DNA from: a virus
Taxonomy: Duplodnaviria; Caudoviricetes
DNA: 64,000 nucleotides
IMG/VR virus record: IMGVR_UViG_3300037424_000434
Span: 32,001 to 96,000 of that record
Direction: 5' to 3' (one strand)
The position numbers and the translations under genes are program-made. The notes under the pieces are model-generated. The model was not told the origin of the DNA. It searched no databases and was given only the letters and a program-made list of their open reading frames with translations. Below, one piece after another: positions 2,795 to 46,997 of this stretch (position 1 is its first letter; each line of letters begins with the position of its first letter).

Positions 2795-2878
2795 CTGTAT
2801 TTGTGTCACGGCCCCACGCGGGGTATGAGTAGTTAAAAATATATTAATATATCATAATATTTTCCGAAAGGTTATACC

Positions 2879-4105
2879 ATGACCCCAGTATTGATCGAAA
2901 GCATGTTGGACACTGATCTATACAAGCTTACTATGTGGCAAGCAATGTTCCACAAGTACACCTCAGCAAACACCAAATGGCGATTTAAAGCGCGTAAAGG
3001 AAATGGTTTCCCAAAAAACGGAACATCCGATACTGATTTCCTGTTGGCTCTAAACCAAAGCCTTGATCATCTATGCACTCTGGGGTTTCTCCCAGAAGAT
3101 CTCACATACCTACGTAACCTACGAACAAAAAATGGTACATTGTTGTTTAAGGATGATTTTCTGGAATATCTGCGATTGTTCAAATATAACAGGGAGTATA
3201 TACACGTCTCCGTTGCGGTGGATGGATCATTGGATATTGTCTTGGATGGTCCATGGATGGCTGTTACTGGGCTTGAGGTGCCTGTGCTTGCTATAGTATC
3301 CGAATTGCATAGCATGACCAAGTTTCAGGGTTCAACCCTTCCAGAAGGTAAATCAAGGCTGAAGGAGAAGATTTCTTTTCTGAAAACGAAAGACTCTATG
3401 GGTAAGTTGGCTGGATTTGCTTTTGCTGACTTTGGTACTCGTCGGAGATATAGCTTTAAGTGGCAAAACTATGTATTAGCCGAACTTGTTAAGGAGTTAT
3501 CTCTTGGTGTTCTGGTTGGCACCTCTAATGTATATTATGCCCGGAAGTATAATCTAACTCCAATTGGTACTATGGCTCATGAATTCATACAATGCTTTCA
3601 ACAGCTTGGTGGTCGGTTGGTCGATAGCCAGAAAGCCGCACTTGAGGCATGGGTGCAAGAATATAGAGGCGAATTAGGCATTGCTTTAACTGACACTGTT
3701 GGATTTGATGCTTTTCTGCGAGACTTTGACCTGTACTTTGCCAAACTCTTTGATGGGTGCCGTCATGACAGTGGTGACCCCCAAATATGGTGTGAAAAAC
3801 TTATTGCTCACTATCGAAAGATGGGTATTGACCCAAAAACCAAGACAGCGGTTTTTTCTGATGGGCTTGATTTCGAATTGGCTTATAACTTGTACTACAT
3901 GTTTCGTGACTTTATCAAGGTGAGTTTTGGTATTGGTACCAACCTCATGAATGATATGGGATGTGATGCAATCAGCATTGTGTTAAAGGTGGTCATGCTC
4001 AATGGTGCTCCGGTTGCAAAAGTATCAGATAGCAGGGGCAAGGGAATGTGTGAAGACCCCGAATATGAGTCTTACGTAAACAAAGTGTTTGGGATTGGAG
4101 GTTAG
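2879..4105 (+). CDS. pncB: Nicotinate phosphoribosyltransferase
   Basis: LDTDLYKLTM, DFGTRRRYS, GTSNV, GTMAHE, RHDSGDP, FSDGL, FGIGTNL, KVSD..GK motifs. Confidence 0.95.
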   Translation: MTPVLIESMLDTDLYKLTMWQAMFHKYTSANTKWRFKARKGNGFPKNGTSDTDFLLALNQSLDHLCTLGFLPEDLTYLRNLRTKNGTLLFKDDFLEYLRLFKYNREYIHVSVAVDGSLDIVLDGPWMAVTGLEVPVLAIVSELHSMTKFQGSTLPEGKSRLKEKISFLKTKDSMGKLAGFAFADFGTRRRYSFKWQNYVLAELVKELSLGVLVGTSNVYYARKYNLTPIGTMAHEFIQCFQQLGGRLVDSQKAALEAWVQEYRGELGIALTDTVGFDAFLRDFDLYFAKLFDGCRHDSGDPQIWCEKLIAHYRKMGIDPKTKTAVFSDGLDFELAYNLYYMFRDFIKVSFGIGTNLMNDMGCDAISIVLKVVMLNGAPVAKVSDSRGKGMCEDPEYESYVNKVFGIGG

Positions 4106-4107
4106 TC

Positions 4108-4305
4108 ATGAAAGCATTTGATGAGATGACCGAAAGTGACCTTGAGGCAATCGCGCGTCTTGCCATTAGTACCTCAACTGTGGTACAGTGGGTCTGTGAA
4201 GCATGTTTGCCTGACATTCACAAGGCATTCAATGCAGGACAACCAGAGCATCACAAATGTGAGGTCTGTTTTAAACCCCGAAAATGTTATGAGGTGTTAT
4301 GTTGA
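4108..4305 (+). CDS. Small Zn-ribbon-like hypothetical protein
   Basis: CEAC...CEVC; follows GGAGG RBS. Confidence 0.55.
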   Translation: MKAFDEMTESDLEAIARLAISTSTVVQWVCEACLPDIHKAFNAGQPEHHKCEVCFKPRKCYEVLC

Positions 4306-4529
4306 GTGAATATACTGGTGGTGTTATTGATTCGTTTACTAAAGTGGTTGTGTGCAAGGATTATTTGGATGGTACTAGTCAGGTATTATTCAGAGGTCTA
4401 GCACAAGATGTACATCAATTCATAGAAGAAAATATGAGTGTTTATTGTGATGACATAATGAATGGTCAGCTTTTTGTAATGACTCTTGAGAATTTCACAA
4501 AAGACGCTACTAACGTAACATATAATTAG
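4299..4529 (+). CDS. Hypothetical protein
   Basis: Operon position, GAGGTG RBS. Confidence 0.55.
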
Positions 4530-4543
4530 GAGATCCCAAACAA

Positions 4544-4990
4544 ATGAACATTCCAATGTATCCAAGAAATCCATACTTGACAGTTGATGCTGTTGTACTA
4601 AGATATGCACCCGATGAGTTTGGATGGTTTGCGCCCGAAATTCTATTGGTGAAACGCAAACGCGAACCCATAGGATGGGCTTTGCCCGGTGGGTTTGTTG
4701 ATTACGGGGAATCAACCAAATCAGCGATTATCAGGGAACTTAAAGAGGAAACCGGTTTAACAGTGAAAAACACTCCCGAGCTACTTTGTGTTAGATCAGA
4801 TCCTGACCGTGACCCCAGACAACACACTGTATCAGTGGTGTATCTATTTAACTACTACGAGGGAGAACTGAAAACGAACGACCCCGACGAGGTTGACGAT
4901 ATTAAGTTTTTTCCCTTATCAGAGTTGCCTGATATGGTGTTTGACCACAAAGAAATTCTGAACCTCCATTTGGACTGGATTGGTAGATGA
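4544..4990 (+). CDS. Nudix hydrolase, ADP-ribose pyrophosphatase-like
   Basis: Nudix box [24 protein letters not shown]; RDPR motif typical of ADPR-ases and NrtR-like Nudix domains. Confidence 0.9.
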
Positions 4991-6487: not shown

Positions 6488-7005
6488 AAAAAGTATTAAT
6501 TGTTGTTGATATGCTTAACGATTTTATTGACAAAGATGGGGTGCTTTCGTTGGGTCAATCAGGTTTTGATATTGTACCGGTTATCGCTAGGAAAGTTTAT
6601 CTGGCAAGACGACAAGGAGACATGGTTCTGTACCTCAATGACGCTCATGATATTAACGACAAGGAGTTCAATAGATTTCCCTCCCATGCGGTTGTGGGTA
6701 CATGGGGGGCAGAGGTTATCCCGGAACTAACGCCGGTGGCGGGAGATATCATTATACCCAAAAAACGGTATAGCGGATTCTTTGGAACATGTCTACAGGA
6801 AACACTATCAACAGAAAACCCCGATATCATTGAGGTGTGTGGATGTTGCACAAGCATTTGTGTGGCAGGTACTATCGAAGAACTCGCAAACAGGGATTAT
6901 ACAGTGGTTGTTGACAGAAAAGCAGTTGCTGACTTTGATCAAGATGCGCACGAATTCTTTTTAGAATACCAATTTCCTCGTATCTTTGGAATTAATGTTC
7001 TATAA
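6484..7005 (+). CDS. pncA: Nicotinamidase (isochorismatase family)
   Basis: VVDMLNDF, DAH, HAVVGTWGAE, KKRYSGFFGT, GCCTSICV catalytic Cys; operon context. Confidence 0.88.
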   Translation: MKKVLIVVDMLNDFIDKDGVLSLGQSGFDIVPVIARKVYLARRQGDMVLYLNDAHDINDKEFNRFPSHAVVGTWGAEVIPELTPVAGDIIIPKKRYSGFFGTCLQETLSTENPDIIEVCGCCTSICVAGTIEELANRDYTVVVDRKAVADFDQDAHEFFLEYQFPRIFGINVL

Positions 7006-7135
7006 GATTGTCGATGAAATCGAAGATTAATACATTATAATCACACTTTCTCTTTGATTAGGGGAGGTGTACTTATATATACAGAAAGGAACAGTAAACA
7101 AAAAAATACGGCCACTAGTGGTTGTCGGAGATTAA

Positions 7136-8368
7136 ATGACTGATCTAGAACAGAATATAATGAATGATGTTATGGAAAATCCTGATATAGGTAGACGTAA
7201 CTTATCAAGAAAATATGGGGTTTCTGAGAAAAAAATCAGACCCATCCTCAAGAGATGTAAATTGATATTACAAGAACAACGAGAGGAAATTGACGACCCG
7301 GACGAACGGTTAGTGGTATATCTCGCTAAACTAGAAAAACAAAAACAACGACTGATGGACCAACAACGGATTGAACGCAAGATCCGCAACCAAATAAGAG
7401 TTGACAATTCCTTGGCAGACTATGGTGCCGAGATATTAAAGATATTTAAGGAAAGAGAGGTAAACTATACTCTCCCGGTACATCAAGCCAACGACGATGT
7501 AGTTGGTATTTTCCAGATATCAGACACACATTTTAATGAACTAATAAACATTACAGGCAATCAATATGACTTTAAAATCGCAGCAAGGCGGTTACAGAAG
7601 TATGTGAATGTGGCAAAAAAACAATTCAAAACCCATAATATTCAAAAGGTTGTTGTTGCAATGACCGGGGATCTATTAAACTCTGATAGACGATTAGACG
7701 AATTGCTCAACATGGCGACCAACCGGGCAAAAGCAACATCATTGTCGGCGATATTACTGGAACAAGTAATAGTGGATTTGGCCCAAGACTTTGAGGTTAC
7801 GTTGACCTATGTTACCGGGAACGAGTCTCGTGCTGGAGAGTATATGGGTACAACAGAAATTATGATTTCTGACAACTATGATGTAACCATTTTTGAAATG
7901 TTAAAACTGATGTTCAGGGACACGAATGTAAATTTTATCGAAGGATCTGTTGGAGAAAAGGTTGTTCAAATAAAAAACAAAAATGTGTTATTGATCCATG
8001 GACATCAAATGAAAGGAAGTATATCAAAACAATCACAACAAATAAAAGGAAAATACTCCGATCTAAACATTAAAATCGATTATATATTGTTTGGCCATAT
8101 TCACGAATGTTTGATCGCTGATTTTTATGCTCGAAGTTCATCCCTGTGTGGTGCCAATGCATACTCCAACAATCTACTTCAACTGACATCAAGAGCCTCA
8201 CAAAATATCCACTTCGTATCAAACACATCTATTAACTCAATGAAAATCGATCTTCAGGAATATGAGGAGTATGAGGGATACGATATTGACGCTTCGTTGG
8301 AGGCATATAACGCCAAAAGCAGTGAAAAGGGTAAAGATAACACTTTCATTGTTGTTAACATTTTATGA
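7136..8368 (+). CDS. Calcineurin-like metallophosphoesterase with N-terminal HTH/coiled coil
   Basis: SDTH, GDLL, GNE, HGH, GHIH motifs. Confidence 0.8.
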   Translation: MTDLEQNIMNDVMENPDIGRRNLSRKYGVSEKKIRPILKRCKLILQEQREEIDDPDERLVVYLAKLEKQKQRLMDQQRIERKIRNQIRVDNSLADYGAEILKIFKEREVNYTLPVHQANDDVVGIFQISDTHFNELINITGNQYDFKIAARRLQKYVNVAKKQFKTHNIQKVVVAMTGDLLNSDRRLDELLNMATNRAKATSLSAILLEQVIVDLAQDFEVTLTYVTGNESRAGEYMGTTEIMISDNYDVTIFEMLKLMFRDTNVNFIEGSVGEKVVQIKNKNVLLIHGHQMKGSISKQSQQIKGKYSDLNIKIDYILFGHIHECLIADFYARSSSLCGANAYSNNLLQLTSRASQNIHFVSNTSINSMKIDLQEYEEYEGYDIDASLEAYNAKSSEKGKDNTFIVVNIL

Positions 8369-9951: not shown

Positions 9952-10124
9952 ATAGGTAAATCAAGGCTACGGCATCCGAACAGAGATGTGCGCATTGTAT
10001 GGATAGAGGCCTACAAGTCAGAAACAGTCAACGGGCAAGAAATGGTAAGCCTCCGGTCAATCATATTTTTGATAAGGGATAACAATGAACATTCAGACTA
10101 TAACAAAAAGAGGAGATTGAGAAC

Positions 10125-10430
10125 ATGGTGAATTATCGAGTAGCACGGATGGTCATTCTGTTAGCGTTTATTTTATTATTATGTGTGTCTCTCACGGGAT
10201 GCGCGGATACAATGACATTTATTCAGGCAGCAAAAGCCGAACCGGTTGGGTTTTGGTACGGATTTTGGCACGGGACGATTGCCCCTTTTGCTTGGTTTGT
10301 TTCTCTGTTTAGCGACTCGACCGCCATCTATGCCATATACAACAACGGTGGGTGGTACGATTTTGGTTTTATGTTGGGGATAGGAGGACTATCGAGCAGC
10401 ACGTCAAGTGCGGCCTACGGGTGGCGATAG
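10125..10430 (+). CDS. Putative lipoprotein/membrane protein
   Basis: Lipobox-like SLTGC; GFWYGFWHG...YNNGGWYDFGF. Confidence 0.7.
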   Translation: MVNYRVARMVILLAFILLLCVSLTGCADTMTFIQAAKAEPVGFWYGFWHGTIAPFAWFVSLFSDSTAIYAIYNNGGWYDFGFMLGIGGLSSSTSSAAYGWR

Positions 10431-10441
10431 CAGATAACGAC

Positions 10442-10470
10442 CAAGATCAGCGGATTGTCCGCTGATCTTG
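10442..10470 (+). terminator. Hairpin, probable terminator
   Basis: Perfect 12-bp stem caagatcagcgg/ccgctgatcttg; U-tract not adjacent. Confidence 0.5.
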
Positions 10471-10505
10471 CATGATTAGCTGATTTTTATTAATGGGAGA
10501 GATAT

Positions 10506-10694
10506 ATGGTTTACGTATTTGTGTTCACTATGGCAGTGGTTGTTTTGAACTCCGTTCATCTTATTTCAATTATCGTCGGACACCAAATAAGTTGGCCGAG
10601 ACTTGGCGTAATAACGCCAACCGCTTGGTTCTTTTTTTACCCAAGTTTGTTATGGCAGATATGGTATTGGGCACCGTGCTTGATGCACAGCTAA
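10506..10694 (+). CDS. Small membrane protein
   Basis: Hydrophobic; GGAG RBS. Confidence 0.5.
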   Translation: MVYVFVFTMAVVVLNSVHLISIIVGHQISWPRLGVITPTAWFFFYPSLLWQIWYWAPCLMHS

Positions 10695-10822
10695 CGAACC
10701 AGCTCAGGGGGTGCAAGCGTAGGGTTGGGTGTTTGAAAATATACCCTCGTGCCTCAAATGTTGTGTATTTAGAAAGAGGGAAATGACCCGCCTAACATTG
10801 ATATCAAAAAAGAGGAAGAATA

Positions 10823-11101
10823 ATGGAAACGATTATTGCTTACATAACACCATTTGTCTCATGGCATGGATTAATCTTCTTATGTGTCTTATATATCACG
10901 GGAATGATAATCCAAGGATGCATTTCGTCTGCTGTTATGGTGAAACGGAGACATATTCTCCGAGAAGAATATGAATTCTCTGACTCCCAAATCATGGGAT
11001 TTTTCTGGAAAAGTGTTTTACTTTTCCCACTCACGTGGTCTTTATTTGCATCGCATGGGATGGGGATGTTTAAGAAAAAGATTTTTAACAAAAAAAGATA
11101 A
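10823..11101 (+). CDS. Membrane protein
   Basis: Two hydrophobic segments; GAGG RBS. Confidence 0.6.
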   Translation: METIIAYITPFVSWHGLIFLCVLYITGMIIQGCISSAVMVKRRHILREEYEFSDSQIMGFFWKSVLLFPLTWSLFASHGMGMFKKKIFNKKR

Positions 11102-11113
11102 CCGGAGAATTAC

Positions 11114-11656
11114 ATGCAACATGAACCACGCCAACAACCACGTAATAACGGCAGAATTTTGTACTTGTCGGGAGAAATTCACGAGATAGCAGCACAAGAC
11201 ATCAACTGTGAGATGTTGAAAATGCAGAGAGATGACCCACTCGAAGATATTACTTTGGTGGTAGACAGCTATGGGGGTAATTTGTTTGCGGCATTTGCCA
11301 TTGTAGATATGATGGATATTATCTCATGTGATATACAAACAATCTGTATCGGCAAAGCAATGTCAGCAGGACAATTTATCTTCAGTACAGGAAAGAGAGG
11401 CAAGCGTTTAATGGCACCTCATGCACGATTAATGCTTCATAATCCAGTAGCTGGATATGAAGGATCGGTGCCTGATATCGAGATAGAAATTGAGGAACTT
11501 CAACGTTGCCGAGACTTATATGTAAAACACATTTCAGGTCGATCTAATCTAAGCACAGATGAGGTAAAAGACTTGATTCAACGTAATGCCTATTTAAATG
11601 CGGAGCAAGCAATTGCCCATGGATTTGCTGACGGCATTGTAACCAAAATAAGATAA
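11114..11656 (+). CDS. clpP: ClpP-like peptidase
   Basis: DSYGG, GKAMSAG (Ser), LMLHNP (His), YLNAEQAIAHGFAD; triad Asp position reads Asn. Confidence 0.85.
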   Translation: MQHEPRQQPRNNGRILYLSGEIHEIAAQDINCEMLKMQRDDPLEDITLVVDSYGGNLFAAFAIVDMMDIISCDIQTICIGKAMSAGQFIFSTGKRGKRLMAPHARLMLHNPVAGYEGSVPDIEIEIEELQRCRDLYVKHISGRSNLSTDEVKDLIQRNAYLNAEQAIAHGFADGIVTKIR

Positions 11657-11667
11657 GGAGAAAAACG

Positions 11668-11943
11668 ATGAGCACAAAGCATATTATGGGATGGGTATTA
11701 ATCGCGCTGGGTATTTGTATGGGACTATATGTGGGGGTATGGTGGGCTTTTATCGGCGGAAAAGCTGCGGTGGCTGAAGCAATCAAAATGGACCCAATCA
11801 ATTCAATGGATGTTGCATTGGGGATTGCTAGAATCTGCTGTTCGGGGCTTGTTGGCACTATTGCTGGTTATACTGCCATTATTCCCGGTGTTGTAATGGT
11901 AACATCTTCCACAAAAACTCGCCGCTTTAAATACCGTGGATAA
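11668..11943 (+). CDS. Two-TM membrane protein
   Basis: Hydrophobic helices; AAGGAG RBS. Confidence 0.65.
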   Translation: MSTKHIMGWVLIALGICMGLYVGVWWAFIGGKAAVAEAIKMDPINSMDVALGIARICCSGLVGTIAGYTAIIPGVVMVTSSTKTRRFKYRG

Positions 11944-12061
11944 GGGCAGGCTACTCGCTATCGGCGATATCCATGGGTGTGCAAACACACTCAAAGCCCT
12001 AATCACCAAAGTCAACCCCACGGAAGAAGATCAATTGATCTTCCTTGGTGATTATCATTAA
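11936..12061 (+). pseudogene. Orphaned original 5' end of the metallophosphoesterase gene
   Basis: GTG-started 41 codons RLLAIGDIHGCANTLKALITKVNPTEEDQLIFLGDY, then stop; paralogous to the 12919 N-terminus. Confidence 0.85.
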
Positions 12062-12067
12062 AACATT

Positions 12068-12149
12068 ATAATTCTCTTAGGTGATTATTATCCACAAAGA
12101 ATCTCCCAAAAATATAAATACAAGTGTAGATATATTTAAGGAGAGTTAT
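12068..12149 (+). promoter_or_regulatory. RBS-sequestering stem with internal late promoter
   Basis: ATAATTCTCTTA (12068-79) pairs with TAAGGAGAGTTAT (12137-49); TATAAATA at 12113-20 lies between the arms. Confidence 0.75.
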
Positions 12150-12926
12150 ATGATAATCAAAATTGAGATGCCCTGTGAGTCATGCAGTACACTAAGAAAG
12201 TTCAAATACAGTACAACAACAGAGAAAATATATGGTTACAAACCTGTGTGTAAAAAATGTACACTGACCGAGAGGAACAAAAAGCAGAACTTCTCACCAA
12301 GAACATATCCAATAGTGGATATGTTTGAGAAAATAGATACCCAAGAGAAGGCGTATATATATGGATTTCTTTGGGCTGATGGGTATATGAAATTCCAGAA
12401 ACGCGCAACACGCAAATCCATAAAAAGTTTGGAGATGAACTTAAACTATAGAGACGTAGAGGTACTAGACTTCATAGTGAAACATTTTGGTGGAGCCTAT
12501 CAAGAAAGAAGTGTGCCTGACAAACGTACCGGTAAATGCTATGATATGGTTCAGTGGCAATTAAACTCCAAGGACGTGTATGATAATTTTTTTAAACTGG
12601 GATTCAGGAACCATTCAAATGCTGTACCTGATGAGCTATTCTATCATTTCCTGAGAGGATTAATAGATGGTGATGGTTATATTAGGATGAGAGGCAACTC
12701 CATTGAAATAAAGATATCATCAAACTATGAACAGGATTGGAGCTATATATCCGATAGGATAAAAAATCCATCTCATGTATCAAGATATATTGGAGAAAAA
12801 AGTAGAAGCTCTGATCTTTATATAAAAGGTGATAGAAGAGATATTCTAAGAGAATTATATAAAGATGCTTCGTTTTATTTGAAGCGAAAATATAATATAA
12901 TAAGAGAGGTAATAGAGAATGAGTAG
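12150..12926 (+). mobile_element. Free-standing double-motif LAGLIDADG homing endonuclease with N-terminal Zn finger
   Basis: YGFLWADG and LRGLIDGDG motifs; CxxC...CxxC; start at 12150 after the RBS. Confidence 0.88.
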
Positions 12927-13638
12927 ATTACTCGCTGTAGGCGATATACATGGCTGTGCTAATACCCTTAAAGCTCTCATGAGTAGAGTCAAACCCACGG
13001 AAGAAGATCAAGTGGTCTTCCTTGGTGATTTTTGTGATAGGGGAAATGGGGTGATAGAAACAATTGATTTTATGATCGACTTAAAGAATAGGTTACCTAA
13101 AACCATATTCCTTAAAGGAAATCATGAGGATTTGTTTCTGCGATATCTATTAAATGGCCCGGAAATAAACAAAAAGGATTATATTTTGAACGGGGGTGGG
13201 ATCACTCTTTTTGATTATACTCGTCTATTAGGAAAAATGCTCCCAGAAGGTCTCGACGACTTTGAGCTGGAATTTCATGAGTTACCAAAGAGACACCAAA
13301 ACTTCTATAACGAATTAAAACTCTTCCATGTTGAAGGTGGTTGTATATTTGTACATGCTGGTTTGCGTCATAATGTCCCTTTGGAAGGCCAACACGAAGA
13401 CGATGTACTGTGGTTGAGGGAGACTTTCATGTACAATCCCATTAATACATGGGGTGGTAAAACAATCGTTCACGGCCATACCCCAATGAAGGTGCCCGAT
13501 GCAGTTCGATACCACCAGAAATATCCAGACAGATATGATGTTGACAATGGATGTGTTTTCGGATATGATTTGACATGCCTTGATTTATATTCAAAGGTTA
13601 CGTGGAAGCAAAAATTAATTGATGAGAGGTTAGAATAA
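12919..13638 (+). CDS. Ser/Thr protein phosphatase-like metallophosphoesterase
   Basis: GDIHG, GDFCDRG, GNHE, HAG, HGHT. Confidence 0.9.
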   Translation: MSRLLAVGDIHGCANTLKALMSRVKPTEEDQVVFLGDFCDRGNGVIETIDFMIDLKNRLPKTIFLKGNHEDLFLRYLLNGPEINKKDYILNGGGITLFDYTRLLGKMLPEGLDDFELEFHELPKRHQNFYNELKLFHVEGGCIFVHAGLRHNVPLEGQHEDDVLWLRETFMYNPINTWGGKTIVHGHTPMKVPDAVRYHQKYPDRYDVDNGCVFGYDLTCLDLYSKVTWKQKLIDERLE

Positions 13639-13964
13639 TGTACGATGATTTTTTGGCTTATGTAAAAGAGAACGAGGTAGAAGCAGAAGAGATTTTTCGG
13701 ACATATTACACCGAAAAGGCTATTGAAGAGGGATGTGATATGCAAGGAGACGAAAGATATACTCTTGAAGCTTTTACCGATGATATGTCTCCAGAAGAGT
13801 TGTATGAAGAATTTGCTTACTGTGTGGATTACTCGGCTTCGTACGCTGGTGCGGCTGGTGTAATTTTGGAGTTTACACAAGAGTTAAATGATGATACTCT
13901 AGATCCAAACGACGTAGAACTACAAGAATTAGTATTGGATGTCCTTGAGCAAAGCGTAAATTAA
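13638..13964 (+). CDS. Highly acidic small protein (DNA-mimic candidate)
   Basis: About 31 D/E versus 4 K/R in 108 aa. Confidence 0.7.
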   Translation: MYDDFLAYVKENEVEAEEIFRTYYTEKAIEEGCDMQGDERYTLEAFTDDMSPEELYEEFAYCVDYSASYAGAAGVILEFTQELNDDTLDPNDVELQELVLDVLEQSVN

Positions 13965-13978
13965 CGAAAGGAAAATTC

Positions 13979-14407
13979 GTGACAAAAACTGACTCCCAAT
14001 TATATTTAGAACGAATGGGCATCATTGAATCTTCTACATCAACCTTTGATTCGGATTTTGATGAAGTAGATGAAGAGGATCTACACAAGCGAGAAGCCAA
14101 GTTGAGATCCGACTTGGCTGATCTGGTGTCCCGGATATCAGTAGTATCTCAGCGAGAAAATGAGGTTCGACGCAGAGAAGCCTACCTAGATGAACTGGAA
14201 CGGAACATATATGAGCGTGTACAACGCCTGTGTCGCCTAGAATCCAATGCAAAAAAGGCACCATCAGCAACAGAGATTGATAGTTCTGATAGATCTACAT
14301 CAAACGACCCTGCTGTCACTGTAGTATCAGTTGATGATTGGTCATCCATATTTGCTAACACTGCTACCGATTGGAGTAGACTGAAAACTGACAAGGAGAC
14401 TTTATGA
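13979..14407 (+). CDS. Coiled-coil hypothetical protein
   Basis: Heptad-like central region; GTG start with AAGGA. Confidence 0.6.
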   Translation: MTKTDSQLYLERMGIIESSTSTFDSDFDEVDEEDLHKREAKLRSDLADLVSRISVVSQRENEVRRREAYLDELERNIYERVQRLCRLESNAKKAPSATEIDSSDRSTSNDPAVTVVSVDDWSSIFANTATDWSRLKTDKETL

Positions 14408-15012
14408 GAAACTACGTAATGGCCGCTGTTTTGACCATTATGGTTTTTGTGGGAAGCAATACCTCTGCGAAAGTCATTGAATTAGAACAATCACAGATTA
14501 CATGCATCAACATAGCATATACGGAAGGGAACAAGATTCAATTGTTTGGTGAGGGGTGGGGAGAAACCGCCGCAGCAGTTATGTATCAAGAATCATGGTG
14601 TAATTCTAACATATGGCAAAAAAGTGGAGTGGTTGTAGGTGACCTTAACCGTAAAGGGAAACCAAAATCACTTGGACCCTCTCAAATACAAGTCGCAACC
14701 GCCAGATTCATCAACACCAAGTACCCCCGTATATTCAAAAAGAGGTATGGCAAACGTGTCCCCTCTGACGAAGAACTAACCATAGATTTGCTCATTGATA
14801 TACCATTCAACATTAAATTAGGGGTACGGTATTTTTCTTACCTGTTGGAGCTGAAAAGGGGAGATGTTGATGCTGCTATATTAGCATACAACAGGGGACC
14901 ACATGGATTAATTGATGTTAATAATTATGTTCAAAAAGTCAAAAAATGGCGCACAACTCATATTAGACCTTTTTTAAGAGGTCACTATAAAATTGTAAAG
15001 AGAGAAATTTAA
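14404..15012 (+). CDS. Lytic transglycosylase (SLT domain) with signal peptide
   Basis: AVMYQES (catalytic Glu), GPSQI, NIKLGVRY, AILAYNRG. Confidence 0.85.
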   Translation: MRNYVMAAVLTIMVFVGSNTSAKVIELEQSQITCINIAYTEGNKIQLFGEGWGETAAAVMYQESWCNSNIWQKSGVVVGDLNRKGKPKSLGPSQIQVATARFINTKYPRIFKKRYGKRVPSDEELTIDLLIDIPFNIKLGVRYFSYLLELKRGDVDAAILAYNRGPHGLIDVNNYVQKVKKWRTTHIRPFLRGHYKIVKREI

Positions 15013-15149
15013 TGACGACCAAAAGATGTTGCATGTCTTGTACTGCACCACAATGATGATTAATATGCACAATTATAGTAATATCTCATATACTTATGTA
15101 TATTGGAAACAAGTTTGGTGGACTAAAAAACTAAGGAGAAATGTGGTAA

Positions 15150-16049
15150 ATGGGTAAGACGAATAAACGTGACATTCCAGTGCTTGTGATTCATCACACC
15201 GACGCCGATGGACATTGTTCAGCCGCAATTGTGGATTATTTCGAACAAGATTGTCTCCTACACGGCATCAACCATGGTCATAATGTTCCATGGGGATTGA
15301 TCAAAAGAGCCCGTAAAATTTATATGGTTGATTTTTGTTTTCAACCATTCTCAGACATGATCAAAGCTCGGAATCTGGTCGGCAGGGAGAATTTTATCTG
15401 GATAGATCATCACAAAACCGCGATACAAGACAAATCCAATTCGGGTCAGACGTTCATTGGACTTCAAGTGATCGGTAAAGCTGGGTGTGAATTGGCATGG
15501 GATTGGTTTACTGGTGCTGATTGTGACTCATCAATGCCAAAGGTAGTAAGGATGCTCGGGCGATATGATGTATGGGATTTGGACCACCACCAAGACATTA
15601 TGCCTGTCCAGTTCGGAATTAAATACTATAACCCAACCGCTGAGTCAAAGCTGTTTTGGAAACATCTGTTTAATCCCGAAGATTCAGAGAAATATTACAA
15701 TGAACTGAAAGAAAAGGGATCAACGTGTTATAATTATCAAACAGCTATGTACACAAATTATTGCAAATCCCATTCCTTCGATCTGGATTGGGAGAATCAT
15801 CGATTTTTGTGTGCAAATGCTCTACATGTTAGCTCTCAGTTGTTTGATGATAAATGGGATCATGATGAATATGATGCTATGTTGGTTTTTGGGTTTACAA
15901 ATGGGGTTTGGTCATGTAGTATGTATACAGACAAACCCGGTATTGATGTAGGGGAAATAGCAAAGCGATATGGGGGTGGCGGTCACAAGGGAGCCGCTGG
16001 AATGAGTTTTGATAAACTACCCTTTGATCTACAAAAAAAGAGAGGATAA
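15150..16049 (+). CDS. DHH/DHHA1 phosphoesterase
   Basis: HHTDADG, VDF, IDHH, GGGHKGAAG. Confidence 0.88.
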   Translation: MGKTNKRDIPVLVIHHTDADGHCSAAIVDYFEQDCLLHGINHGHNVPWGLIKRARKIYMVDFCFQPFSDMIKARNLVGRENFIWIDHHKTAIQDKSNSGQTFIGLQVIGKAGCELAWDWFTGADCDSSMPKVVRMLGRYDVWDLDHHQDIMPVQFGIKYYNPTAESKLFWKHLFNPEDSEKYYNELKEKGSTCYNYQTAMYTNYCKSHSFDLDWENHRFLCANALHVSSQLFDDKWDHDEYDAMLVFGFTNGVWSCSMYTDKPGIDVGEIAKRYGGGGHKGAAGMSFDKLPFDLQKKRG

Positions 16050-46787: not shown

Positions 46788-46997
46788 ACTTTTATCCTTT
46801 TTTTATAAAATAGAGGGTATAGTAAAAATAGGGAGGTACTGGCCGAGTCGGCACATATACTCCACAAAATAGATGAATCAAAATGTATGGCACACAATAT
46901 CCATATTATATTGACCAAAGATGCTTTCGCCAAAAGGTTCATTTGTCGTTAAATTCGTTGTCCAGTGAGAGTCTTGTTACGGGATATTTATATTTAT

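Follow-up and report, generated by a model that had tools for sequence, protein, structure and literature searches.

Organisation of the locus

Within a 64,000-nucleotide stretch of phage DNA (positions 32,001 to 96,000 of IMG/VR record IMGVR_UViG_3300037424_000434; hereafter the window), we examined a locus at which a LAGLIDADG homing endonuclease gene stands between two diverged copies of the 5′ end of a phosphatase gene, one of them the start of a complete (resident) gene downstream and the other an orphan upstream. The record is a 235,765-base phage genome from a sediment metagenome, about 98% complete as judged by CheckV. In agreement with a preliminary description made from the letters alone, the orphan, the endonuclease gene and the complete phosphatase gene follow one another in a row on the plus strand. 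In the list below and throughout, 'cassette' denotes the putative mobile unit comprising a leader, the endonuclease gene and the start of the phosphatase gene; L015 is one of the related loci described further on.

11936..12061, plus strand: orphan 5′ fragment of the phosphatase gene (Pfam; alignment to the full gene and to relatives)
12056..12065, plus strand: junction filler CATTAAAACA between orphan and cassette, matched neither by the target gene nor by the L015 cassette
12066..12088, plus strand: older target half-site remnant ATTATAATTCTCTTAGGTGATTAT at the left end of the cassette, homologous to the L015 remnant
12100..12121, plus strand: conserved cassette leader AATCTCCCAAAAATATAAATAC with promoter-like motif TATAAATA (cassette alignment)
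12138..12143, plus strand: ribosome-binding site AAGGAG of the endonuclease gene, upstream of the ATG at 12150
12150..12926, plus strand: free-standing double-motif LAGLIDADG homing endonuclease gene, 258 amino acids (aa) (motifs, model, homologues)
12919..13638, plus strand: complete NinI-like / PPP-type metallophosphatase gene, 239 aa (Pfam, PHROG, motifs)
12919..13032, plus strand: substitute 5′ segment of the phosphatase gene, codons 1-38, with 81% DNA identity to the orphan
13018..13044, plus strand: motif II codons of the resident gene, FLGDFCDRG, the putative target site in a variant form (alignment)

A separately assembled 45.5-kb Logan contig, from a run that is a possible source sample of the record, covers the whole of this stretch with 0 differences at a word depth of 19, and where short contigs of two other sediment studies overlap it, they agree with it fully. 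Because the separate assembly and the fragments from the other studies are identical to the record, an assembly artefact is unlikely as the origin of the layout. The contigs of the two other studies cover only parts of the stretch; none of them bridges the junction between orphan and endonuclease gene and none carries an endonuclease-free variant. No RNA data set was listed among the sequencing runs that contain this DNA. A megablast search of a phage collection with bases 10000-16000 returned no match.

The open reading frame (ORF) of the complete phosphatase begins MSRLLAVGDIHGCANTLKALMSRVKPTEEDQVVFLGDFCDRG, and its start overlaps the endonuclease stop in ATGAGTAG. The protein matches Pfam Metallophos (E value 1.3e-17) and PHROG 246, 'NinI-like serine-threonine phosphatase' (E 5.7e-44), carries the motifs GDIHG, GDFCDRG (the metal-binding motif II), GNHE, VHAG and HGHT, and aligns to PP1, PP2A and Rhizobiales-like phosphatase.

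The orphan is an ORF of 41 codons that reads V-D-K-G-RLLAIGDIHGCANTLKALITKVNPTEEDQLIFLGDY-H-stop, with RLLAIGDIHGCANTLKALITKVNPTEEDQLIFLGDY forming residues 5-40. It matches Pfam Metallophos on its own (E 3.8e-6) and the first 39 residues of the full phosphatase with an E value of 2.6e-15. Its homology to the gene runs from 11942, where AAG stands in place of the former ATG, to 12055, the end of the Tyr codon of GDY, after which come CAT and the stop TAA. Alignment of the window to L034, an endonuclease-free relative, shows that the start codon has changed from ATG to AAG and that the ribosome-binding site is gone, which is how a displaced relic is expected to look. Between the two 5′ copies, 20/108 bases differ, amounting to 10 synonymous and 8 non-synonymous codon differences, and the longest identical runs are 18 and 15 bases. 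The many synonymous differences noted in the preliminary description are thus present, but the pattern looks like ordinary divergence and not directed recoding.

Immediately upstream, a membrane-protein ORF (window 11668-11943) is 91 aa long, compared to 77-79 aa in relatives, and continues into the stretch where the orphan's start has decayed; mutation of that start region probably produced the extra length.

The intervening gene encodes a double-motif LAGLIDADG protein

The endonuclease gene is free-standing, with its own AAGGAG, its own ATG and a separate ORF that ends at 12926; the ATG at 12150 is its likely start. The protein scores 21.5 bits against Pfam LAGLIDADG_3, just below the cut-off of 22.5, and matches PHROG 4645, 'endonuclease', with an E value of 2.7e-22. 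A single-sequence scan of viral contigs with the endonuclease as query found nothing, but alignment-based scans succeeded, and homologues of the endonuclease were traced to their contigs. Ten homologues, 45-62% identical, have in common two LAGLIDADG motifs and, at the N-terminus, a zinc ribbon of the form CxxC...CxxC. The motifs in the window's protein are GFLWADG (D77) and LRGLIDGDG (D173, D175), and these Asp residues are invariant in 11 aligned homologues. An AlphaFold model built from the homologue alignment has a predicted local distance difference test score (pLDDT) of 89.4 and shows two alpha-beta-beta-alpha-beta-beta-alpha domains, for which the best PDB matches in Foldseek, at a probability of 1.00, are bI3 maturase, I-OnuI, I-AniI and PI-PfuI. 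Judged by the model, the protein is a monomeric double-motif LAGLIDADG enzyme. LAGLIDADG homing endonucleases recognise a long, specific target site and leave 4-base 3′ overhangs. In the genome, this endonuclease family is represented once, by the gene next to the phosphatase gene.

Related genomes carry an uninterrupted phosphatase gene

The five closest homologues of the phosphatase, at 56-61% identity, are found at L003, at L033 together with the contig of P0002, at L034, at L035/36 and at L037. In these relatives, the genes for ClpP and a small membrane protein come first, in some cases followed by one small ORF; next is the phosphatase gene, and then those for an acidic protein (about 107 aa), SLT and DHH. 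All five (5/5) have one uninterrupted phosphatase gene, with no endonuclease and no orphan. The window is the sole member of the syntenic group that carries the insertion, and the endonuclease shows presence/absence polymorphism at one locus among related genomes. By this comparison of gene order, the uninterrupted phosphatase gene is the ancestral state. Mapping the junction against these endonuclease-free alleles shows that the homology of the orphan ends at GDY.

The layout recurs at other loci

Related arrangements were found at the following loci:

L009: 42-codon Metallophos orphan ending GDYID-EK-stop, endonuclease (60% identical to that of the window) and complete phosphatase, with stop/start overlap
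L005-L008 and L021: endonuclease and overlapping phosphatase, with no detectable orphan
L015: short remnant TTCTTGGGTGATTAT upstream of the endonuclease, after an apparent ATG-AGA-TTA-TTA
L011, L017, L018 and relatives: endonucleases of a well-supported sister clade (99/97), divergent at the 5′ end of an SbcD-like metallophosphoesterase gene
L016, 3208-4915: SbcD-like gene on the minus strand, a related endonuclease in inverted orientation, and an orphan on its far side
L016, 4760-4915, minus strand: this orphan, 51 codons, 59% identical to the N-terminus of the gene (E 3e-16)
L026, 2139-3828: an endonuclease from a more distant branch of the clade, divergent at the 5′ end of a third type of metallophosphoesterase gene
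L040, 2792-4232 (also L041): LAGLIDADG_2 (PF03161) endonuclease of 200 aa, minus strand 2821-3423, divergent upstream of a phosphatase orthologue

The SbcD-like metallophosphoesterase of the sister-clade loci belongs to PHROG 100 (E 9.8e-48), and the homology of the L016 orphan to the SbcD-like gene ends at SL|GD, that is, at motif II. The metallophosphoesterase at L026 is 255 aa long, with the motif ILNGDIFDAW and a Metallophos match of E 1.5e-13; no orphan was found at this locus. At L027/28, members of the endonuclease family have no metallophosphoesterase neighbour. The LAGLIDADG_2 endonuclease at L040, which comes from a 239-kb phage, is unrelated to that of the window. The orphan beside it, MKGRLLAIGD, is 10 codons long (2792-2821), abuts the endonuclease stop and is broken at motif I, GD|VHG. 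A search for shorter homologues, meaning orphans that had been called as small genes, gave two matches, one of them a mid-gene piece, and neither ends at motif II.

In four locus types, then, an orphan that ends at metal-ligand codons is accompanied by an endonuclease gene and an intact gene with a new start; two endonuclease families, two target genes and both orientations are represented. With two unrelated endonuclease families, two motifs and two or more target genes involved, the layout has the appearance of a general route rather than of a single chance event.

A comparison of L009 with L005 gives identities of 75% for the endonuclease and 74% for the N-terminal part of the phosphatase (up to motif II), followed by 59% for its C-terminal part, 57% for the acidic protein and 51% for RlaP. 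At the DNA level, identity is highest (84%) over the junction of the endonuclease and phosphatase genes and drops to ~62% downstream of it.

As a separate matter, the genome of the window has an SbcD-like gene of its own, at G000:C1:178477-179175, outside the window.

Junctions and leader of the cassette

The right junction, where the endonuclease stop overlaps the phosphatase start, is identical in all four phosphatase-linked locus types, and the left junction is different in each of them. Since bases 12066-12088 match the L015 remnant, the window cassette appears to have held a decayed half-site already, with the fresh orphan added upstream of it. The older remnant shared by the window and L015 cassettes points to serial invasions.

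Upstream of the endonuclease genes, a leader of the form AATC[TA]CC[CT]AAAAATATAAATAC is common to most of the aligned cassettes. Its core, AAATATAAATA, occurs 5 times in the window against an expectation of 0.17, at 883, 12110, 36160 and 36972 on the plus strand and at 46985 on the minus strand, and three of the five copies (883, 12110 and 36972) stand upstream of a ribosome-binding site and an ATG. AAATATAAATA is a candidate T4-late-like promoter of the phage.

The leader can also fold. In the window (12062-12156), a stem pairs the endonuclease ribosome-binding site with an upstream arm and places TATAAATA in the loop; the 5′ arm of this stem is the 12066-12088 remnant. A stem over the ribosome-binding site recurs with different sequences at L005 (3925-4008), L011 (3935-4008) and L009 (3918-4008), with z scores of -2.5, -4.5 and -7.6 among the stems of the window and these loci, that of L009 not being significant. 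In two cases, the window and L009, the upstream arm derives from a remnant of the target gene (TTC CTT type). The combination of a late-type promoter motif with a stem covering the ribosome-binding site resembles the control of T4 I-TevI, which couples a late promoter to occlusion of the ribosome-binding site.

Motif II as the putative target site

On the protein alignment, the orphans end after GDY in the window, after GDYID in L009 and before GD in L016, all within ~15 bases. The five endonuclease-free relatives read FLGDY[IV]DRG at this position and the resident copy of the window reads FLGDFCDRG, with TTT TGT standing for TAT ATY. In the 120 best phosphatase homologues, the two residues after GD are Y[IV] in 108 and anything else in 12. 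The three known endonuclease-linked alleles in this list (FC, MI and MV) all belong to the rare class, and the allele beside the LAGLIDADG_2 endonuclease, MI, is likewise rare.

The preliminary description had suggested that recoding of the resident copy confers immunity to cleavage. This survives only in part: the two break codons (TAT ATY to TTT TGT) do stand out, but most of the differences are ordinary divergence, one linked allele, that of L015, keeps GDYIDR, and the FC allele at L038 occurs without an endonuclease. A prediction that non-Tyr alleles would be endonuclease-linked came true for 1/3 alleles tested (P0031, which is linked to the other endonuclease family) and failed for P0028 (FC) and P0009 (LI). 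We speculate that the FC allele of L038 and the LI allele of L039 are resistance alleles or former hosts of the element.

A probable splicing-free homing cassette and the competing explanations

The locus is probably a homing cassette that works without splicing and carries, together with its endonuclease, a replacement start for the phosphatase gene that it invades. Such a cassette would consist of a leader with a promoter-like motif and a ribosome-binding site, the LAGLIDADG gene and, at its 3′ end, a replacement for the first ~38 phosphatase codons. In a mixed infection, the enzyme would cut endonuclease-free alleles within the motif II DNA, at about TTC CTN GGN GAY TAY ATH GAY. Repair of the right end of the break would use the cassette-bearing genome as template, across its 5′ gene segment and its endonuclease gene; the left end would either attach to an orphan already in place or be closed by illegitimate joining. 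This would strand the first 38 codons of the recipient upstream, as the orphan, and the resident working copy would escape cutting by presenting GDFCDRG instead of GDY[IV]DRG. The arrangement of the parts, its recurrence, the uninterrupted relatives, the fold of the enzyme and the decayed start of the orphan are observed; that motif II is cut, that the FC allele is immune and that repair takes this route is what we infer. Much of this had been anticipated in the preliminary description. A mobile unit made up of the endonuclease and a substitute 5′ segment agrees with the constant right junction, the varying left junction and the endonuclease-free relatives; that the orphan is a relic of the invaded allele agrees with its change of ATG to AAG, its lost ribosome-binding site and the five uninterrupted relatives; and the proposed insertion at the GDxxDRG codons is supported by an orphan that breaks after GDY and by three loci that break within ~15 bases at motif II.

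Several observations weigh against this account. In the endonuclease-linked allele of L015, GDYIDR is retained and the one change is in the codon that follows (Gly to Ser); no endonuclease accompanies the FC allele at L038 or the LI allele at L039, so that the coupling between variant site and endonuclease is loose; the breaks may lie at recombination joints in the best-conserved DNA and not at the cut site; and the L009-L005 identity gradient, which fits co-transfer of the endonuclease with the gene start, is a contrast of only ~2 standard errors. The origin of the orphan is a further point. Its G+C content at third codon positions (GC3) is 50%, compared to about 31-39% in neighbouring genes (36 codons, standard error ~8 points), and its DNA is nearer to the resident 5′ end (81%) than to the relatives (65-69%). 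The two are each other's nearest DNA relatives, others reaching at most 69% for the orphan and at most 71% for the resident end, and their distances to the five relatives are about equal (protein identity 75-83% across 36 residues), segments of 36 residues being too short for a decisive tree. The GC3 and the 81% pairing fit a closely related donor and also an orphan that arrived with the cassette. The latter would hold if the cassette were of the same type but the orphan were not the lineage's own, the whole block having arisen once in another phage and having entered by ordinary homologous recombination through its flanks or been inherited vertically; an existing orphan would then supply perfect left-hand homology for further homing. 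We regard this as unlikely. The deviation in GC3, although suggestive of a foreign orphan, lies within sampling error, the window and L009 orphans break at different bases and have different spacers, the second, older remnant inside the window cassette implies that a new orphan was added here, and the five nearest relatives have neither orphan nor endonuclease. Because identities and GC3 do not decide the matter, we argue for the native status of the orphan from the junction pattern and the lost start codon.

It is more improbable still that the endonuclease is an ordinary intergenic one of the T4 seg/mob type that cuts elsewhere, with the orphan an incidental scar left by a single illegitimate recombination in the best-conserved stretch of DNA and the 5′ segment no functional part of the element. 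Orphan-free loci such as L005, L011 and L018 and the consensus Tyr-Ile retained by the linked allele of L015 would suit this explanation, as would the fact that free-standing T4 endonucleases often cut far from their own genes (PMC2988022). It is, however, unable to explain four independent breaks at metal motifs, made with two endonuclease families in two target genes and in both orientations, and 3/4 of the linked phosphatase alleles found via the window's endonuclease family have a rare non-Tyr residue at the break. We give very little credence to a spliced insertion, such as a group I or group II intron, with the orphan as exon 1. No stop codon interrupts the orphan before the motif, and a splice from 12055 to 13033 would preserve the frame, but the downstream gene is complete with its own ATG, the orphan has lost its start codon and related cassettes occur without any orphan. 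An Rfam scan of 11600-13700 on both strands gave 0 matches at E values up to 1 and no ribozyme core, so that the preliminary description's claim of insertion without splicing stands, given also the complete downstream gene with its own start. Negligible, finally, is the chance that an assembler merged two strain variants. The record is a metagenome assembly, but the separate assembly repeats the layout at the same depth and without a difference, the identical runs between the 5′ copies stop at the 18 and 15 bases given above, and the same layout appears in unrelated assemblies.

Returning to the replacement-start cassette, we tentatively extend it to a wider reading, to which, taken as a whole, we would give somewhat less than an even chance. 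One LAGLIDADG lineage of large phages may have specialised on the motif II (GDxxD) DNA of the whole metallophosphoesterase superfamily, with sub-clades at the 5′ ends of the NinI-like phosphatase gene, the SbcD-like nuclease gene and the third type seen at L026. The lineage would hop among these gene families by way of motif-level DNA conservation and would always use the design of a replacement 5′ end; the orphans would be datable fossils of these jumps, and FC, MI and LI would circulate as resistance alleles.

Comparison with known systems

The usual view is that a homing endonuclease can sit inside conserved, essential sequence only with the help of an intron or intein. The window locus and its relatives would represent a third route in phages, an element that brings a spare gene start.

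The hallmark of two groups of eukaryotic elements is present here, namely an endonuclease gene between two diverged copies of one gene end, one working and one orphaned. WHO elements at FBA1 of Torulaspora and Lachancea yeasts replace the FBA1 3′ end at each integration, with no splicing and with allele-specific cutting, and repeated homing builds clusters of genes and pseudogenes beside FBA1 (Coughlan et al. 2020, eLife, PMC7282813). The cassette shares with them the absence of RNA or protein splicing, a conserved housekeeping-type gene as target, the replacement of one gene end, stacked fragments and a nuclease that combines a LAGLIDADG-type domain with a zinc finger. The two differ in polarity: a WHO element sits downstream of a yeast nuclear gene whose 3′ end it replaces, whereas the cassette acts on the 5′ end of a phage gene and lies upstream with translational overlap. 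WHO proteins are intein-derived, unlike the compact, free-standing 258-aa LAGLIDADG enzyme of the cassette, and cleavage has been shown for WHO elements and is a deduction for the cassette. Gene hybrids with mORFs in fungal mitochondria, at atp6 of Allomyces macrogynus and at atp6, atp9, cox2 and nad3 of Glomus (Beaudet et al. 2013, PMC3630166), are likewise made up of a LAGLIDADG or GIY-YIG ORF and a version of the displaced gene end that is foreign, while the native version lies orphaned beyond the ORF. mORFs, however, carry a C-terminal end, often in frame, and reside in an organelle, whereas the cassette carries an N-terminal end with its own start and resides in a jumbo phage.

In phages, the closest parallels are with the intronless homing of SegF, SegB and MobE in T4-like phages, which also involves a free-standing endonuclease beside a conserved gene, one that close relatives lack and that would be expected to propagate by cleaving alleles without it, with co-conversion of the flanks; the leader with its late-type promoter motif and stem over the ribosome-binding site is a further likeness. 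The one-sided illegitimate joining invoked above has a counterpart in T4 intron homing, for which PMC2988022, citing Parker et al. 1999, recounts a double-strand-break repair with homology on one side only. Gene-interrupting T4-type cases split the host gene into two coding regions (mobE in nrdA, mobA in gene 60, seg at gene 43; PMC2988022), and that source mentions no duplicated gene segment, whereas the cassette has a duplicated, diverged start and an orphan. In phage Aeh1, as PMC2988022 summarises the report of Friedrich et al. 2007, mobE within nrdA is, like the cassette's endonuclease, inserted in a critical region of an enzyme gene, but in that phage both pieces retain function and come together at the protein level; at the window locus the downstream gene is whole, and the upstream piece is superfluous and in decay.

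No phage description of a replacement-gene-start design was found in the literature searched, which was a limited collection. The locus is set apart from these precedents by the jumbo-phage host, the 5′ polarity with translational overlap and the apparent tracking of one superfamily motif. For annotation, orphans of this kind are easily called small genes or mistaken for split genes; they also mark recombination boundaries between phage lineages. The predicted target, ~21 bases of the DNA encoding FLGDYIDRG, and the natural variant alleles lend themselves to a simple cleavage test, and the endonucleases may offer new LAGLIDADG scaffolds with a zinc-ribbon add-on.

Other features of the related genomes

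Syntenic relatives have further nuclease-type ORFs in the neighbourhood. At L037, a 191-aa ORF (4129-4704) with a faint NUMOD3 match is wedged between SLT and DHH, and at L039 a GIY-YIG protein is encoded nearby (6689-7378). The phage group appears to be rich in homing-endonuclease genes. An N6/N4 DNA methyltransferase gene, absent in the window's group, lies between ClpP and the phosphatase at L038 (2534-3418) and at L040 (1686-2543).

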